Source: Octopus sinensis (Eukaryota). Taken from it: a DNA stretch of 64,000 bases. The notes below the pieces were generated by a model. That model saw nothing but the letters and a program-made list of their open reading frames with translations, made no database searches and had not been told where the DNA came from. Below, piece by piece: positions 3,685 to 55,400 of this stretch; position 1 is the first letter of the stretch, and each line of letters opens with the position of its first letter. Location of the stretch: contig NC_043015.1 of NCBI RefSeq assembly GCF_006345805.1, forward strand, positions 47,554,001-47,618,000, given 5' to 3'. The translations under genes and the position numbers were made by a program.

Positions 3685-3949
3685 CTGTGATCTTTTGGTA
3701 CAAGTACCATAACTGCCAATTACTGTTTGTTTACATTTGAAGAAGAAGATCGTCATTTTCCATAAAGCTTTTTTTTTTATATATGTGGGGTTAGGGTTAG
3801 GGTTTGGGTTAGGGTTAGGGTTAGTGTTAGGGATAGGGTTAGGGTTTGGGTTAGGGGTGGGTTGAAGGGTTTCTTTTTTCTTCAGAAATGTAAATAAACC
3901 CACGTGGATTTATAACTGGCAGTTATGGTACTTGTACCGAAAGATTGCC
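3685..3949. mobile_element. TIR MITE with 8-bp TSD carrying an interstitial telomeric (TTAGGG)n tract (about 3788-3856); Merlin-like
   Basis: TIR ATCTTTTGGTACAAGTACCATAACTGCCA (3690-3718) / TGGCAGTTATGGTACTTGTACCGAAAGAT (3917-3945); GAATCTGT at 3677-3684 and 3950-3957. Confidence 0.75.
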
Positions 3950-31162: not shown

Positions 31163-31580
31163 GTGCTGGTGGCACATAAAAGCACCCACTACATCCGTGC
31201 CTGTGGCACATAAACAGCACCCACTACAACATGCCGGTGGAACGTAAAAAGCACCCACTACACTCTCGGAGTTGTTGGCGTTAGGAAGGGTATCCAGCTG
31301 TAGAAACTCTGCCAGATCAAGATTGGAGCCTGGTGTGGCTGTCTGGTTCGCCAGCCCTCAGTCAAAATCGTCCAACCCATGCTAGCATGGAAGGCGGACG
31401 TTAAATGATGATGATGATGATGATGATGATGAATAACAACATCAAAAAATACCTTAGGAATGAGAACCCAGGTTCGAAATTTCTCCAAGACACCTGATGA
31501 AGGCTGGAGGGTATATCAGCTGAAACGTTGTGTTAACAACAAACAAGATGAGGACAAATATCCATCAAATGTAAATAAGT
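31036..31580 (+). mobile_element. tRNA-headed SINE-like element with (AAT)n linker and 3' hammerhead, interrupted by an RTE 3'-end insertion (about 31160-31430)
   Basis: A box TGGCATAGTGG, B box AGTTCGATTCC, (AAT)n 31113-31155; the AAT/AAC-rich sequence resumes at about 31431 and leads into the hammerhead. Confidence 0.55.
31489..31534 (+). ncRNA. Minimal type I hammerhead ribozyme
   Basis: GACAC-CTGATGA-A-GGCTG-gagggtatat-CAGCT-GAAA-C-GTT-GTGTT; stem I GACAC/GTGTT, palindromic AACGTT stem III, GUU site. Confidence 0.68.
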
Positions 31581-31916: not shown

Positions 31917-32558
31917 CAGGGGCTGAACAAAATAATGGAATCACCTTAAAATTTCAAACAAATTTATTTTAATATTGGGTAGGACCGCCTTTGGCAGTAA
32001 TTACAGCTTGAATTCTACGAGGTATGGATTCATACAAAGTTTGAATTGTTTCCAAAGGAATTTTTGTCCATTCTTCAGCTAAAACAATCTCCAGTTCTTG
32101 TAGTGATGATGGTGGAGGATATCGACTCCTTACTTGTTTTTCTGAAATGCACCATAAATGTTCTATAATATTGAGATCTGGGGACTGTGGTGGCCAGATA
32201 AGAAGTTCAACTTCACTAGAATGTTTCTTGTGCATTCAGTAACAACTTTAGCTGTGTGAATTGGTGCATTATCATCCTGAAAGATTGCGTTTCCCTCCAG
32301 AAGCAGTTCTGCAACCATAGGATGAATTTGATCAGATAAAATGCTTTAAAAGTCTTGACTATTAATTCTGCCATGAACGGAAATCATTGGGCTGGCGGAT
32401 TTCCAAGAAATAGCCCCACAGATTATCACAGATCGGAAGAAGGCAGTCTGGGTCAAATGCTTTTTTTGGCTGTCTCCACACATATACTCGGCCAGTGGTC
32501 GGAAATAAGGTAAAGGATGACTTGTCTGAGAAAATAATATTCTTCCACTGCTCTAGTG
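31917..32558 (-). mobile_element. Tc1-like (DDE) transposase relic with terminal TIR
   Basis: WKNIIFSDKSSF..FQDDNAPIHTAK..WPPQSPDLNIIEHLW..SIPRRIQAVITAKGGPTQY; TA|CAGGGG terminus. Confidence 0.88.
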
Positions 32559-35854: not shown

Positions 35855-36778
35855 GTCATCCTGGTTTTCAAACAGGGTAACAGATCCCTTGCAGTCAACT
35901 ATTGCCTAATTTCATTCACCTTCCATATCATTAAAGTGTTTGAAAGGGTGGCGAGATCAAAGATAGCTGGCTTCCTGGAGAGCCACAAACTCCTAAATTC
36001 AAACCAGCATGGCTTTCGCCACAGCAGGGACTAACACAGCTCTTACAGTACATTGATGATATCCTTATAGCCTTTGGATCAGGTTTGAACTCTGGTGTCA
36101 TATATCTTGACTTCAGTAAAGCGTTCAACAGAGTTGACCATAACATCCTACTGTCAAAAGTTAGAATCTGTGGAAAACTTCTACACCGGATTGAATGTTT
36201 CCTGGAGAACAGAATACAACGTTGTGATCAGCGGAATCCACTCGAGCCCAGCAGAGGTCACCAGTGGTGTACCTCAGGGGACTGTCTTGGGCCTGCTCCT
36301 CTTTATAATCTACATAAATGACCTTTCCAGCATTGTAAACACAGCAAAGTGGAAATATTCACTGATGACTCTAAGCTCCAGAAAACTATCAATGAAGAAA
36401 ACCGAACTGAACTCCGAATGGATGACGACGCCATGGTGATCTCATTCTTGCTCACAACATCATAACCAGAAAGTGTAACCTCTCAAAAGAGCTGTTCTTC
36501 ACTCCTGCTCCAGTGTGTCGGCTGCGGGGTCACTCCAAAAAGCTCTATCTGCGACGATTTCATCTCAATCGAAGGAGAGGGGCTTTCTCCGTCCGGGTTG
36601 CGGATCCGTGGAATAAGCTGCCGGACGAGATAGTGAAGATGCCGACGACCGCTCGGTTCAAAGTCTCCCTTGACCACAAATGGCCTGAACTCTTTGCATG
36701 AACACCCTCCCTGTACATAACTCCATGTCCCCCTAAATGGCCTTGCTTTTTGCTTTTTGAGCCAAAAAATTAACTAAG
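35855..36778 (+). mobile_element. CR1-group LINE RT relic (internally deleted) with 3' end
   Basis: NYCLIS..KVFER..NQHGFR..VIYLDFSKAFNRVDH..SGVPQGTVLGLLLFIIYINDL..; RLRGHSKKL..FSVRVADPWNKLP; TAAC tail. Confidence 0.88.
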
Positions 36779-37278: not shown

Positions 37279-37775
37279 TCGTAGGAGTGGCTGTGTGGTA
37301 AGTAGCTTCCTTATGAACCACATGGTCCTGGGTTCAGTCCCACTGCGTGGCACCTAGGGCAAGTGTCTTCTAATATAGCCTCGGGCCGACCAAAGCCTTG
37401 TGAGTGGATTTGGTAGACGGAAACTGAAAGAAGCTCATCGTATATGTGTGTGTGTGTGTATGTTTGTGTGTCTGTGTTTGCCCCCTGCCAACATTGCTTG
37501 ACAACCAATGCTGGTGTGTTTACATCCCAGTAACTTAGTGGTTCGGCAAAAAAGACCGATAGAATAAGTACACAGACACACAAACATATATATATATATA
37601 CACACATATATACGACAGGCTTCTTTCAATTTCCGTCTACCAAATCCACTCACAAGGCTTTGGTTGGCCTGAGGATATAGTAGAAGATACTTGCCCAAGG
37701 TGCCACGCAGTAGGACAGAACCCGGAACCATGTGCTTCGTAAGCAAGCTACTTACCACACAGCCACTCCTATGCC
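37279..37775. mobile_element. Adjacent inverted pair of family A SINEs
   Basis: Plus copy 37279-37570 abuts a minus copy to 37775; about 165-bp arms are reverse-complementary. Confidence 0.82.
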
Positions 37776-38002
37776 TTTAAAAAAATTGTTAAAATATTTT
37801 GTGCCTTGTAGAAGTATAACCAATCTATTTCACATAAATGTTTGACAATAAAATCTGATATGGACCCCCACCCCAACCAGGGTCATGTGGACCCTGGTTG
37901 AGAACTCCTTGTTTAGATAATGCAAATGAAAAATCAAGTATGAATGATTGTGATGAAAAGTATCATGGAATTGGTGTTTTATGGAGTAATAATTAAAAAA
38001 TT

Positions 38003-38448
38003 GAGTAGTTGTGTGCTATGAACTTAATGTGACAGTCCCATGAAGGGAATCACACCACTGCTATTTAGCCCTAGGAATCAGCAACGCTTCCTGTCGGCTG
38101 TCACACATTTCCTGTGTCCTTATGTTTACAAGGGGGAGACAAGCACCCCCACCCAGCTAAGCCTGCAACCAGAGACTAGTTTCTGAGTCTTTACTCATCA
38201 TCAGTCAGGAGTAGCATGGCCTGCTAGCTGAGATGCTTGTCTAGGCCTTGTAAAGATATAAGAATTCTAGTGAAATAAATCCACTGATTACAAAAATAGA
38301 AATACTACATTTCTAAATATCTGAGAGAGATATAAGCAGTAGTGGCACGATAGAGTAGTTGTATACTGTCAACTTAATGTGACAGTCCCATGAAGGGAAT
38401 CACACCACTGCTATTTAGCCCTAGGAAGCATCAACGCTTCCTGTCAGC
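38003..38448 (-). mobile_element. Retrozyme/Penelope-LTR-like element: 350-bp unit plus 96-bp terminal redundancy, containing a hammerhead
   Basis: 38003-38098 is repeated at 38353-38448 (period 350), with the hammerhead between the copies; no ORF. Confidence 0.6.
38152..38232 (-). ncRNA. Type I hammerhead ribozyme, intact core
   Basis: Minus strand reads CCTGA-CTGATGA-TGAGT-AAAG-ACTCA-GAAA-CTA-GTC-TCTGG: 5-bp stem II, palindromic ACTAGT stem III, GUC site at 38174. Stem I extends via CAGCTA..GGCC.TGC / GCA.GGCT.TAGCTG. Confidence 0.75.
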
Positions 38449-38977
38449 CTTGATTGTCACTGAGAGACAGCAGGGAAAGATTTAAATTTGCATGGAGAGG
38501 TTTTACTTGTGATTCCACACTGTAATACTACTAAAGAAAAGCTATTTAATTTAACGAAGCTTAAAACTCCGAGTAGGTTATTACTTAAGGTTGATGACAC
38601 ATTTGTCTTCTCTAATTACAGCAAAACTGGAAGACATACAACCAAGTTATAAAATATAAACCACATAGATGTTCATATTCAAGGAGTCATGTAAATAAAT
38701 GGAGTTGTTGTAGTCCTTTGTGTCTGTGCAATGTTGTTAATATGCCCTATTATGAGAACAATTAGGCTGATGAAACTTGTAAGTTGACCTGAATAAGTTA
38801 AAAACATATTTATTTTTGTAACTGACTTCAATACATGTTATGGTTAGCAAATTGGTGATATTAATTCATAATTTTAATCTTTAACATCAGTAAGCACCAA
38901 GCCAAGCACCTAGTTGACATACAGTTTGTAGCCACGTCACAAGAAGTGATGGAATTCTGTAAAATGAATAATCTCTA

Positions 38978-39341
38978 CTAGCACTATGATCCAGCATTGC
39001 CGGGTCATAGTGCTAGTGCATGCATATACAGCTGCGTGCGTGCACACATACATGCGAGTACTGTCCAAATCTCCAACCAATCACATACAGCTAGCTGGCA
39101 TTCAATTGGCGTATCAAGTTTCGGGCATTTTGATTGGGTTTTGGATAGAAAATTCACAAAAAAGTCACTTCTATTGATTTTTTAATGGCTTTGTGGGGTG
39201 ACTGGGGAAATGTAAAGATGTGTACGACCACCCTTGGACGGTTTTGAATGACCATAGAAAGTGCGAGCCCTCTAACTGAAAAATTGTAGATTTGTATAAA
39301 GGACACTCACACAGACATTTTGCCGTTTATATATATAGAGA
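38978..39341 (-). mobile_element. Non-autonomous Helitron
   Basis: Minus strand A|TCTCTATATATATAAA ... hairpin ATGACCCGGCAATGCTGGATCAT ... CTAG|T; no TSD; second copy at 47771-48146. Confidence 0.8.
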
Positions 39342-45294: not shown

Positions 45295-48200
45295 CTGAAA
45301 AATAAAATTCACAGCGTTAAATATTATAGATATAGAAGGAGATAAACTGAACAAAGGAATTTCAACCGTGTTTTGTGGTCTGCTACCACAACAGCTCCTT
45401 TATAGGATCCGGTTAGCTCAAGACATCATCAGGAGGAACCACGTCCGGTTTCGGCCCCTACTCCTCTACTGTTTTGACGTGGCGGGGCCCCTCCCTTTCG
45501 GAGGTGTCTACAGCTCTGATGTTGGGTGCGTGTCTTCTTTCTTCTTCTTTCCTCTGTTCCCTGGCCTCTTCGATATGGCATCAATGAGTGCCAGTGGATG
45601 ACTGACTGTCCCGTCAAAATTCCCTTTAAATACCTGCTGCTAGGCTCCAGCAGGCAGCCCTAGCAAGTTGTCACATGACACTGTCTCAACTGTAACTGAC
45701 CAATGAAGGTGCGTAGTCTTAGCCCACGCATTCTCTAAACGACCGTCACCTGTCAATCAGCGAAGCTAATTCAATGTCAGCTTATCTCACCTAGTGATGT
45801 TATTTTCCTGCCAGCATGTTATGACTTTCAAGCTAGTTTTGGTCTTCCTGCTTCAGCCATATATAGAAGCTGGCTTTTTCAACCGCCTCCTGTACTCTCC
45901 TTATTAGTCTTCTCAGCTAATTCATTGTTCATTCTATTAATGTCACGTCATGTGGCCAACCAGGTTATCAGGTGTTGGTACACATCGCTGGTCACAATGC
46001 ACTTCGCATCGTTTTAGCCTTCAAATAACACCGCCCCACTGGTTAAGCGAGCAGGCCAACAGAAGAAAGAGTGAGAGAAAGTCATGGCAAAAGAGTACAG
46101 CAGGGGTCGCTACCACCCCCTGCCAGAGGCTCATGGAGCTTTAGGTGTTTTTGCTCAATAAACACAACGCCCGGTCTGGGAATCGAAACCGCAAGTCTGC
46201 TGCCCTAACCACTGGCCATTGTGCTTCCATTCTATTACTGTAAAAGGGTAAAAACCCCTTCAGTTATGGACGACCATGAAATTGCACCTAGTCCAGACAA
46301 GGTTGTTTTTGGAAGACCAGCAGTCACCCATGCATACCAGCCTCTCCTCTACAATGCCACTGATGTTATCCAAGGGAAAGGCAAAGGCCGATACAGCTTG
46401 GCACCAGTGATGTCACAACTCATTTCTACAGCTGAGTGAACTGGAGCAACATGAAATAAAGTGTCTCGCTCAAGAACACAATACAGAGCCCTGCCTGAGA
46501 ATTGAACTCACTACCACATGATTGTAAGCACGATGCTCTAACCAGTGAGCCATGCACTTTCACTTCTATTAATGTATCTTTCAAATTATTTTCATTCAAT
46601 AAAAGTTTGAGTAGCTGAGGACTTCTATCTGGTTTCTATTTACGAAGACCTGTTGAGGCAAGTGAAATCGAAATCAAATTCGATGACTGGCATCCGTGCT
46701 AGTGGAGTGCTAAGAGCACCATCCGAGCATGGTTGTTGCCAGAGCGGCTAACTGGCGTCGGTGCCGGTGACATGTAAAAAGCACCATTCGAGCGAAGTCG
46801 TAGCCAGTGCCGCTGGACTGGCTCCTGTGCAAGTGGTACGTAAAAAACACCATTTGAATATGGCCATTGCCAGTACCGCCTACACTCTCGGAGTGGTTGG
46901 CGTTAGAAGGGCATCCAGCTGTAGAAACTCTGCCAGATCAGATTGGAGCCTGGTGCAGCCATCTGGTTTGCCAGTCCTCAGTCAAATCGTCCAACTCATG
47001 CCAGCATGGAAAGCAGATGTTAAACGTTGATGATGATGATGATGTTAACAAAGGAGAGGCAAATACAGAAGTAATGAAATATTAACAGACACCACAGTCC
47101 TGAAGTACTATTCCCTATCTCCATCCGTAAATAATTCTTTCTAATTTTTGTCACAAAGTCAGCAATTTTGAGAGGAGGAGAAGTCAACTACGAAGAACTT
47201 GGTGCTCAACTTGCACTTATTTTATTGACCCTAAAAGGATGAAAGGCAGAGTCGACCTCAGCAGAATTTGAACTCAGAACGTAAAGCCTAGAAAAAGTAC
47301 CACAAAGTATCTTGTCTAGTATGATAGTGATTCTCTAGCTCACTGCCTTTTCGTCTGCAAATATATATGTATGTGTGTGTGTGTGTGTGTGTGTGTATGT
47401 TTGTGTATCTGTGTTTGTCCCCCCAACATCGCTTGACAACCGATGGTGGTGTGTTTAAGTCCCTGTAACTTAGCGGTTCGGCAAAACGAGACTGATAGAA
47501 TAAGTACTAGGCTTCCAAAGAATAAGTCCTGGGGGGTCGATTTGCTCGACTAAAGGCGATGCTCCAGCATGGCCGCAGTCAAATGACTGAAACGAGTAAA
47601 AGAGTAAAAAGAGAGAGTAAGAGTATACTAGAGATAGACCATGGAAACCTAAGAATAGACAGTTGAGTTAGACCAGAGAGTATTGGAGTACACAAAAGAC
47701 AATATGCAAAAGTGGTGTTCAACTCTTGCCGGTATCTATTATAGTCTAGGCCATACAGTTTTATGAAAGATTAGCACTATGACCTGTCATTGCCGGGTCA
47801 TAGTGCTAGTGCATGCATATACAGCTGCATGCATGCGCACGTACACGCGAGTACTGTCCAAATCTCTGACCAATCGCATACAGCTAGCTGGCATTCAATT
47901 GGCGTATCAAGTTTCGGGCATTTTGATTGGGTTTTGGATAGAAAATTCACAAAAAAGTCACTTCTATTGATTTTTTAATGGCTTTGCGGGGTGACTGGGG
48001 AAATGTAAAGATGTGCACGACCACCCTTGGACGATTTTGAATGACCATAGAAAGTGTGAGCCCTCTAACTGAAAATTTGTGGATTTGTATAAAGGACACA
48101 CACACACACACACACACAGACATTTTGCGGTTTATATATATAGAGATTTGCTTTACAAAACCAGGCCTTTAAAGCCTTCATTATTCAGTTCGCAGATTTG

Positions 48201-52400: not shown

Positions 52401-55400
52401 TCTCTCTCTCACCACCTATATAAATATATGGGTGTATATTTTTTTATATCTCCTGTCTATTAAATAATATATTTATATAGACTTACTGTCAACTCATTTC
52501 ACGCTCATCAATTCTGATGGAAAGTAGCAAGTCTGACAACTGAAAAAATTCAGTTTCTAACCCACAACATTGCAATCAGTTACAATAAAGTCAGAATTAT
52601 ACATAAGCACTTTCAATTATCAGACCTGCAAGTTTTCCTCAGAGGCTATGAAGTCCTAAACAGAAAATGAGTTGACAGTAAAGCTAACTAAATGTGTTGT
52701 TAGATACATCATGTACAGGCATTAAAATATATATATATAGATCAAAAGAGAAAGAGAACAACAAACAGTGTCATGACTTATTATACTAACTCCAATAAGT
52801 CATGATGACATCATCCCCATCATTAATTAATGTCCGCTTTCCATGCTGACATGGGTTGGACAGTTTCACAGGAGCTGGTGAGCCAGAATATTGCACCAAG
52901 CCCCTACTGGCAGCTTTGGCATAGTTTCTACTGCTGGATGCCCTTCCTAATGCAAATCACCTTATAAAGTGCACTAGATGCTTTTTTATGTGGTACCAGC
53001 ACCAGTGAGGTCACCAAGTAACTTGCAAAACAAGGCCCTTAGCTAAGTGTGAAGTAGTATTAAGGTTGTTGGCTTTGTACCAGGCGAGGAGGAGAGGTTA
53101 GGGTATAACAGAGGGACAGAAGCAAGTGTCTTGCAACGAAAATAATAAAGAACTTACCTTATCAACATGAAAAATTAAATCTAACTCACAGACATTTTCA
53201 AAACACTTGTCCAGAGTTTCAACAAATACCTAAAAGAAAAAAAAAAAGCTATATGCAAAACATCTTTAAGATTGAAACAATAACAATAGAAATATTGATT
53301 ACTCTTTTACTTGTTTCAGTCATTTGGCTGTGGCCATGCTGGAGTATCGCCTTTTTAGTCGTGCAGATCGATCTCAGGACTTACTCTTTGTAAGCCTAGT
53401 ACTTATTCTATCGGTCTTTTTGCCGAACCGCTAAGTTGCGGGGACGTAAACACACCAGCATCGGTTGTCAAGCGATGTTGGAGGGACAAACACAGACGCA
53501 CAAACATATACACACACACATATATATACATATATACACACATATATATATATATACACACATATATATATATATACACACATATATATATATACACACA
53601 CATATATATATATATTTATATATATATATATTCGACAGGCTTCTTTCAGTTTCCGTCAACCAAATCCACTCACAAGGCTTTGGTCGGCCCGAGGCTATAG
53701 TAGAAGACACTTGCCCAAGGTGCCAAGCAGTGGGACTGAACCCAGAACCATGTGGTTGGTAAGCAAGCTACTTACCACACAACCACTCCTGCGCCTGCAT
53801 CTGGAATAATGAAGATTAAATCTTCAAAGATTATTTTATGTTAGTAAGCCAGGGCCCCAGTATTGTCATATGGTGAATCCAGGATAATGTATTAATTTTG
53901 ATATGGTACTATGAGATTGGATTAACTGTGATCAAATTTGGTTTGATATATATCTCCATAACTCAGTATGTTTCTAAAAGAATCCTTCACTTACAAAGAA
54001 ATAGAACCAAGTTTTTGCCTGCATCATTCTGTGATGCACCTGAACACATTATCAGTGATGTTTCATGGTGTCATTACAGGTTTCAGGTCTTTCAACATCA
54101 GATACCCTCACCCAGACAGCCCAACTGGGGTTGATCAAGTCCTAGTTTGTATCCAATTAGCATTGCCCTTGGTAGCATGGCCCCATCCAGGGTTCATGCC
54201 TCCTGATCCACAGCCCCTTTGAGACAAACTCTGCTGTCTCCACAGCCAAACTGATGGCCCTCAGCCTACTGGCCCCTGCAATGCCAAAAACCTCTCGAAA
54301 GAGCTGTTCTTCACTCCTGCTCCAGAGCGTCAGCTGCAGGGTCACTCCGAAAAGTTCTATCTGCGACGATTTCATCTCAATCGAAGGAGAGGGGCTTTCT
54401 CCGTCTGGTTTGCGGATCCGTGGAATAAGCTGCTGGACGAGATAGTGAAGATGCCAACGACCGCTCGGTTCAAAGACTCTCTTGACCAGAAATGGCCTGA
54501 ACTCTTTGCATGAACACCACCCTGTACATAACTCCATGTCCCCCTACTTTTTGCTTTTTGAGCCAAAAAATTAACTTAACTATCATTATTTAACACCCAT
54601 TTTCCATGTTGGGATGGGCTGGACGGTCTGACAGGGGCTGGATGGTCTGACAGGGGCTGGACGGTCTGACAGGGGCTGGCTAGGTAGAAGACTGCACCAG
54701 GCTTCGCTGTCTGTTTTGGCAGGGTTTTTATGGCTGGAAGCCCTTCCTAACACCAACCATCTTATCTTGAATTATTTTTGTTTTACCTGTATGAGTATCT
54801 GTATGAGTATCTGTCTATACTGATCAAAAATTCACATAAAAACCAAAACAAAGTAAATTTTACTCACCTGAATTAGATCCAAAATACCAAGCTCACTTTC
54901 TGATGAATCAACACAAAACACAAAGTATAAAGTCGCGTAGTGCCGATATATAAGTTTGAAATCTGCCCCACCTATCAGCCTAAAATATAGAATCGCATAG
55001 TGTTTAAGATACATGTCTCAAATGTGTTTCTATATCGATTATAACATTACAATAATTACAAATTAAAATTACCTATAATACAGTATTTATACACAATATG
55101 CTTTTATCTTTAATACTTAGACCTAACAACAGGCAATGAATTTCTGGAAAGAAACATCATTTGTGTACAAGAGAGATATTTGATTTTTCATCATTGATTT
55201 CTTTACCGTGTCATTTAACCATTTAGTATTCACATTACTCCATCAAATCTTAATTATTCTCGTTGTCTTACAAGGGGGTACTGAAAGGTTCTTCGCTTTA
55301 AGGGTATCATGAAAGGCCTGGTTAAAGGACCAACTTTCCAAGTTCTTTTTCAGGGCTTTGAAAACCCGAAGGAGTGCTGTAAAAAGCATCCGAATCTAAG

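Follow-up and report, generated by a model that had tools for sequence, protein, structure and literature searches.

What kind of element leaves a hammerhead ribozyme between two copies of the same short sequence, 350 bp apart, in the DNA of an octopus? The question is raised by positions 38003-38453 of a stretch of 64,000 nucleotides from Octopus sinensis (the window, here and below, is the whole of that stretch), where a sequence-only reading had seen a hammerhead on the minus strand and had proposed that its flanking repeat arose by reverse transcription around a circular RNA. In this article, I will argue that the insert is probably an aged, 5'-truncated copy, about 1.3 units long, of a non-coding family, likely a non-LTR retrozyme inserted by the enzyme of a Penelope-like element (PLE).

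The insert as a whole occupies 38003-38453 on the minus strand and spans the 350-bp unit of an ORF-free hammerhead repeat about 1.3 times, with its 3' end at 38000-38003 and its 5' truncation at 38453 as given by contig depth and loose ends. Its terminal repeat, R, had been described as exact; the period of 350 bp holds, whereas the exactness does not, since 38003-38098 and 38353-38448 are alike at 89 of 96 places and share an exact core of 57 nt (38021-38077). By the contigs of other copies, discussed below, the redundancy extends to 38103/38453, where 91 of 101 places are alike and 10 differ. The 3' copy of R (38003-38103, minus strand) bears the main fixed 3' end of the family, whose equivalent place is 38350, and the 5' copy (38353-38453, minus strand), placed by the repeat comparison and by family letters, is the truncated start of a second unit; at 38449-38453 it is the 5' copy that agrees with the family letters and the 3' copy that differs. 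AT-rich target DNA lies at the 3' junction (37985-38002, with ATT at 38000-38002), and no target-site duplication longer than 2 nt was found at the insert ends 38003/38453. The 350-bp unit has a GC content of 42%, one type I hammerhead and, as had been claimed from the sequence, no ORF: the longest stop-free frame wholly within it has 52 codons and is without a Pfam match. The locus carries a single hammerhead in its 1.3 units, with no second one in cis, and no second copy of the unit was found elsewhere in the 64-kb window. Of 44 frames compared with Pfam, 36 were taken from the 112 with at least 85 codons and 8 were shorter ones at or near the element; none of those beside the element had a match above cut-off, and no frame of a helper PLE, with reverse transcriptase and GIY-YIG endonuclease, was found among the 44. 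The surroundings hold other repeats: two inverted copies of a SINE-like repeat stand directly left of the insert at 37282-37771 (arms of 199 nt, 86% complementary), and a stable 41-nt hairpin at 38977-39017 (z = -5.5) opens a 222-bp repeat that recurs at 47772-47993 with 94% identity and is possibly the end of another mobile element.

The 350-bp unit is a high-copy family. Contigs from four of the 24 runs listed (X1, X4, X6 and X7, with four organism labels) were aligned to 37830-38760 at 80% likeness, giving 2611, 2703, 482 and 2078 aligned contigs. Depth over 38022-38453 exceeds that of the unique right flank by a factor of 10^2-10^4, with a fall at 38453; in X4 and X7 the hammerhead core reaches about 940-990 times and R about 12,000-14,000 times the depth of the single right-flank contig, ratios to be read as orders of magnitude only and not as copy numbers. 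Relative to the core, R has 10-14 times the depth in X1, X4 and X7 and about 25 times the depth in X6, the one run guessed to be RNA. Loose ends at 38453 go on as the sequence from 38104 onwards, contigs lying on the second R run into the sequence found after the first, and the joints listed include some that go back by 345-349 letters in 6 contigs. X1 record 1 and X4 record 9 run across the junction from R to the unique part of the unit, and X1 record 3 and X4 record 14 across that from the unique part to R; sequence unlike the unit makes up only 1-2% of the aligned total. Since both unit junctions are present in other copies, the redundancy belongs to the element and is not a duplication of the target, and the same family junctions fix the limits of the insert at about 38003-38453. 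The hammerhead core is kept as well, with no variant at its letters among the 29 in-unit variants of the 40 listed (103 in all), so that the earlier proposal of a multi-copy 350-bp hammerhead unit, present here as a 1.3-mer, has been borne out by junctions and by a conserved fold.

This locus is itself an aged, 5'-truncated member of the family. Its right junction is bridged by one X4 contig (38406-38760) with 10 other letters and 13 gaps, which places the insertion in a diverged relative or allele too, so it is not recent; an X7 contig would count as a second bridge there if it were one letter longer. Recurrent loose ends at 38393-38394 and 38443-38445 in all four runs suggest at least one R subfamily with small deletions or divergent letters. 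No contig with two hammerheads was found among the 32 of 7983 pieces listed, and pattern scans for the motif returned nothing from metagenome or viral contigs. X6, which is RNA by guess, covers the unit and not the flanks; its contigs give no strand, level or ends, and it was given no weight on either side of the circle question. Several other signals were set aside: a joint from 37950 to 38577, with a 26-letter side and unknown letters between, was rejected as an empty site; a depth trough at 38214-38277 was rejected as an RNA start, as it coincides with indels and broken alignments; and a depth step at the cut site (38168 versus 38190) is within the noise of neighbouring places.

The hammerhead itself was recognized from its sequence, a descriptor scan with shuffles, and family variants. 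On the minus strand, the type I core (38174-38204) runs through C3-A9 (CUGAUGA, 38204-38198), helix II (38197-38184), G12-A14 (38183-38181) of the GAAA at 38183-38180, and helix III, A15.1-CUAG-U16.1, which forms the palindromic ACUAGU at 38180-38175, to C17 (38174), with the cut predicted between 38174 and 38173. Helix I pairs 38210-38205 with 38173-38168 and is followed by an internal loop of 38213-38211 opposite 38167 (38167-38213 in all, minus strand, from the sequence and family letters), beyond which the predicted fold adds about 40 further bp as a long extension between 38117 and 38264 on the same strand. This is the three-helix type I layout, a CUGANGA/GAAA/UH core flanked by helices with helix I open, and the internal loop at 38211-38213 presumably takes part in a loop I-loop II contact. 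The full core with a palindromic helix III, as first claimed, can be read directly at 38204-38174, and the extension of helix I is real, although it spans about 38117-38264 and not the 38152-38232 given for it. The word "intact" suits the core and not helix I, which at this locus has U-U mismatches at 38207/38171 and 38210/38168 and forms 4 of its 6 pairs. A strict type I descriptor, custom-made and set after the motif had been seen, has 2 matches in the 64-kb window (the 38174-38204 motif and one at 31494) and none in 300 dinucleotide shuffles. The proposed check by Rfam hammerhead models yielded no hammerhead match at any threshold tried, whether the window was scanned at the gathering score or stretches of 1201 and 101 bases at E<=10. 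Weak Rfam snoRNA matches (13-15 bits, far below gathering) were rejected, for they rest on the UGAUGA letters.

The letters of the family bear on what this ribozyme was before it aged. In four runs the majority letter differs from the locus at 38207 (94-97% of depth) and at 38168 (71-94%), and these two letters close both mismatches to give a 6-bp helix I; at 38193 the majority letter (94-100%) leaves helix II with 4 bp and a loop of 6 nt, and helix III of the family is a single pair with a palindromic loop. The base of helix II is U-A at the locus and not the usual G10.1-C11.1, position 10.1 being C in 34-66% of depth with no change of its partner listed; the axolotl HHR_Amex2 is also described without the G10.1-C11.1 pair, having a U-U mismatch (PMC7229834). 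The canonical metazoan hammerhead is defined, in the available text of PMC4209133, by a helix I of 6 bp, a helix II of 4 bp and a helix III of 1-2 bp with a palindromic loop. Because a 6-bp helix I, a 4-bp helix II and a 1-bp palindromic helix III fit that definition, the hammerhead in its majority-letter family form is, by its letters, canonical type I, and the term "minimal" that had been applied to it has to be dropped.

A second hammerhead-like motif, of the minimal PLE type, lies at 31488-31535 on the plus strand, with CUGAUGA, an extra A, a 6-bp helix II, the letters GAAACGUU with a palindromic ACGU, and a 5-bp helix I, but it has U at position 17. Folded freely, it is not significantly stable (z = -0.5). 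Immediately before it stands a SINE-like repeat ending in (ATG)n, and a DDE_3 transposase fragment at the Pfam cut-off (31969-32235, minus strand) lies about 450 bp away; the motif shows no sequence relationship with the 38003-38453 element.

Folding places the motif in a larger structure. The region 38110-38270 folds with z = -5.3, and the 350-bp unit folded as a circle gives z = -5.0 or -7.8 depending on phase, with 12 neighbouring 350-mers ranging from +2.5 to -3.9; in the circle fold the hammerhead core is placed at the tip of the long helix at about 38117-38264. The family changes listed, 23 after removal of one duplicate row and of five rows equal to the second R copy, were compared with this fold: 8 leave a pair in place, 5 create a new one, 6 fall at unpaired letters, and 4 disrupt a pair, 2 of these in helix II. 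Random changes would break 9.2 pairs on average against the 4 observed (P about 0.012), a test that rests on the fold predicted from this copy and on unphased contig letters and is hence supportive and no proof of covariation. Family variation mostly keeps the predicted fold, as far as this model goes. In a folding model that ignores tertiary contacts, an inactive pairing is more stable than the active hammerhead by 13.4 kcal/mol at this locus and by 7.9 once the majority letters are put into helix I. To judge from its letters, this copy is probably a poor cutter, because it has two helix I mismatches and no partner in cis. Selection on cutting is suggested by what has been preserved across the family, namely a helix I of 6 bp, the core, and the self-pairing of the entire unit. 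The long helix at 38117-38264 would also suit A-to-I editing, and no editing signal appeared in X6 (guessed to be RNA), with 12 A>G and 8 T>C changes versus 11-15 and 8-11 in the other runs.

How copies of the family ended up where they are is recorded in their ends. The main 3' end is at 38350, where loose ends in 26, 24 and 19 contigs (X1, X4 and X7, respectively) continue into long, mutually unlike, AT-rich flanks; in X6, 5 contigs leave at 38352 into GA repeats (among the 24 of 865 loose ends listed). A second 3' end at 38298 is marked by 3 of the 32 pieces listed, which begin there after 350-401 unrelated letters, possibly at 2 loci, and by the X1 depth, which rises from 28,539 at 38268 to 117,798 at 38305. 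There are then two fixed 3' ends, 52 nt apart, with AT- or microsatellite-rich flanks, and between them a 52-nt "tail" (38298-38349, minus strand) delimited by the end positions and the depth step, with two small hairpins (38333-38317 and 38315-38297) that are not significant on their own (z = -1.1). I infer that this tail is a candidate binding and start region for the reverse transcriptase of a helper. Depth declines from R to the core, as variable 5' truncation would give, and 7 of the 15 joints listed are inversions (14 further joints lie beyond these), all joints being called at 80% likeness, a level prone to noise. The joints 38160/38395 and 38206/38391 are necessarily 5'-to-5' inversions, because their shorter sides (83 and 93 letters) exceed the 58-62 family letters available to the right. 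The fixed 3' ends do not coincide with the predicted cut but are set 174 and 226 nt downstream of it, and the locus crosses the cut site intact, so the template of this copy was an uncut or a re-joined RNA.

These marks are those of PLEs. According to two reports, PLEs are marked by partial tandems, by inverted copies truncated at the 5' end and by a tail that may or may not be present (PMC8557442), the tail being defined by two internal starts of reverse transcription, with the nick made in AT-rich DNA (PMC11167929). The octopus family has two 3' ends with a tail between them, AT-rich targets, 5' truncation, partial tandems and inversions, and it is the fixed 3' ends, AT-rich targets and inversions, none of which figured in the sequence-only reading, that point to PLE machinery. 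Other remnants in the window are of a different kind: broken LINE-like reverse transcriptase sequences, apparently not PLE-like, remain at 35944-36701 and 54157-54543, with weak RVT_1 matches below cut-off at 35944-36436. An interstitial (GGGTTA)n run of 11.5 copies stands at 3788-3856, which I take to be the TTAGGG telomere repeat.

From these elements a mechanism can be proposed for a retrozyme family that is likely non-autonomous and PLE-mobilised, with self-cutting and RNA circles as predictions. Head-to-tail copies would be transcribed from the minus strand, and two hammerheads would join by their ACUAGU palindromes, with cleavage after C17 releasing 350-nt monomers, which a host ligase could close into circles, as described for axolotl (PMC7229834, in the part available). 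A PLE reverse transcriptase-endonuclease would bind the tail hairpins and nick AT-rich DNA, and reverse transcription would begin internally on the RNA, at a point 174 or 226 nt downstream of the cut, pass the cut/ligation junction into the next unit and usually stop early. Early stops would leave mostly short, R-centred stubs, and few copies would exceed one unit, as the one at 38003-38453 does. A circular template is plausible in this scheme, and an uncut tandem transcript accounts for the 1.3-mer equally well.

That equivalence is where the nearest competing explanation begins: the same family and the same PLE helper, with no circle at all, the template having been an uncut head-to-tail transcript, or the enzyme having switched templates, and the hammerhead being a passenger or acting at a different step. 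I regard this as a serious possibility, if somewhat short of an even chance. It would explain why the genomic ends lie 174 and 226 nt past the cut and why this copy crosses the cut site intact, and it has precedents among PLEs, where mutating the hammerhead of an Anolis PLE left its insertion normal and RNA that had not been cut served as the main substrate in vitro (PMC11167929) and where partial tandems form routinely (PMC8557442). With circle-free partial tandems and an uncut-RNA substrate on record in these two sources, the earlier claim that the redundancy arose by copying round a circle is not established. The 10 differences among 101 places between the R copies would fit two different template units, as an uncut transcript would offer, but age would explain them too. 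What speaks for circles is that the kept 6-bp helix I, core and self-paired unit fold suggest selection on cutting and that all three animal retrozymes tested in the available part of PMC7229834 give circles. A different possibility is that an autonomous PLE stands behind the family, with the unit as nothing more than its pseudo-LTR and the copies as truncated 3' ends of this coding element, for which one may cite the 10-14-fold excess of R over the core in the three runs other than X6, the PLE-like character of all insertion hallmarks, and the 841 loose ends beyond the 24 of 865 listed, among which links to an ORF could sit. It is less likely, because downstream of R the family goes through the tail and the hammerhead back to R after 350 bp with no ORF, and 1-2% of the aligned sequence, no more, continues as something unlike the unit; moreover, animal PLE hammerheads are usually minimal (PMC7761336 and PMC4209133, as far as the available texts go), whereas the family form is canonical. 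I therefore consider it improbable, without dismissing it.

Two simpler accounts have very little left to stand on. In one, the 96-bp repeat would be a long target-site or local duplication around an inserted hammerhead fragment of 254 bp, which the repeat-insert-repeat layout permits and for which the larger target-site duplications reported for animal retrozymes (PMC7229834, available part) offer some precedent; yet no part of the family is as abundant as R, which in other copies adjoins the inner part on either side, and family contigs rule out a long target duplication unless they come from other repeats that merely share R, which leaves this account barely credible. In the other, the hammerhead would be a chance match in an unrelated repeat, as the lack of an Rfam hammerhead match and the after-the-fact descriptor might lead one to suspect, but the 300 shuffles of the 64-kb window gave no match at all, majority letters complete helix I at two places, and no listed change touches the core letters, so that coincidence is just as hard to believe.

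What, then, does a PLE-inserted non-LTR retrozyme in an octopus add? Retrozymes are known from many animals, including a mussel, and one more family is a modest addition. The family is likely new within the known retrozyme class, since no cephalopod retrozyme is described in the titles and abstract openings of the literature searched, and the motif was not found in the supplementary files of the published papers searched; the O. vulgaris repeat library and the supplement of PMC7229834 are places that could hold it. The useful part is the insertion footprint: PLE mobilisation of retrozymes has so far been based on co-occurrence and sequence kinship, and a footprint in an ORF-free hammerhead family opens it to a direct test in which a PLE enzyme is given this RNA. 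One can go further and picture an octopus family in which copies with the ribozyme number about a thousand and 3' stubs ten thousand, with a hammerhead that, in amphibian style, works only as a dimer, abundant 350-nt circles, and a PLE-type enzyme running round the circle from two internal sites, although this fuller picture is speculative and I doubt that it will hold in every part. If true, a dimer-dependent canonical hammerhead in a mollusc would soften the split between monomer-active invertebrate and dimer-active amphibian ribozymes, and a PLE-type enzyme running round circles would be a direct footprint linking the circular retrozyme RNAs of animals to PLE machinery.

The cephalopod background, so far as the available texts reach, includes 235 hammerhead-1 loci counted in the giant squid genome (PMC6962438) and 190 Penelope-like families in an Octopus vulgaris repeat paper whose available text leaves ribozymes unmentioned (PMC13282606). 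Non-LTR retrozymes are multi-copy units of 150-450 bp with a GC content below 50% and one hammerhead, all of which is found in the 350-bp family, and by analogy the octopus element is likely akin to those of axolotl, mussel and coral. With the axolotl Rtz_331/HHR_Amex1 and the 350-390-bp repeats of mussel it shares a small ORF-free unit, a GC content below 50%, one type I hammerhead, high copy number and a self-paired fold, and with HHR_Amex1 a one-pair helix III ending in a palindromic tetraloop; HHR_Amex1 cuts poorly alone and well as a dimer (all from the available part of PMC7229834). The octopus family differs in having this weak, amphibian-type helix III in an invertebrate, where most retrozymes are said to cut as monomers (PMC7761336, available part), in closing helix II with a pyrimidine opposite A, in that most of its copies appear to be 3' stubs, and in that its tandem dimers, cutting and circles are predictions. 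Among hammerheads, it shares type I topology, a palindromic helix III and a likely dependence on dimers with the minimal ones of PLEs and differs from them in its helix II of 4-5 bp and in its 6-bp helix I with an internal loop (PMC4209133, in part).

In its manner of insertion the family resembles the pseudo-LTRs of Anolis Poseidon and other PLEs, which, in the available parts of PMC11167929 and PMC8557442, likewise have two fixed 3' ends past the cut, AT-rich targets, a partial tandem, 5' truncation, inverted 5'-truncated copies and no clear target-site duplication; unlike Poseidon and PLEs (PMC11167929, in part), it is ORF-free, with a tail of 52 nt versus 30-40 and a hammerhead that is canonical versus minimal. 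A PLE origin or mobilisation of animal non-LTR retrozymes has been proposed by Li, Clavereau and Pollet (bioRxiv 10.64898/2026.07.22.740005), and the retrozymes of that work, as the available text presents them, share with the octopus family the proposed PLE link and monomers scattered through the genome. By its rule that an active locus has two hammerhead-bearing units the octopus locus would fail, and in the same text 8 of the 9 Xenopus retrozyme dimers tested did not cut. That proposal rests, in the text available, on co-occurrence and pLTR phylogeny, mostly in vertebrates and with no mollusc among the groups it names, whereas the octopus case is an insertion footprint.
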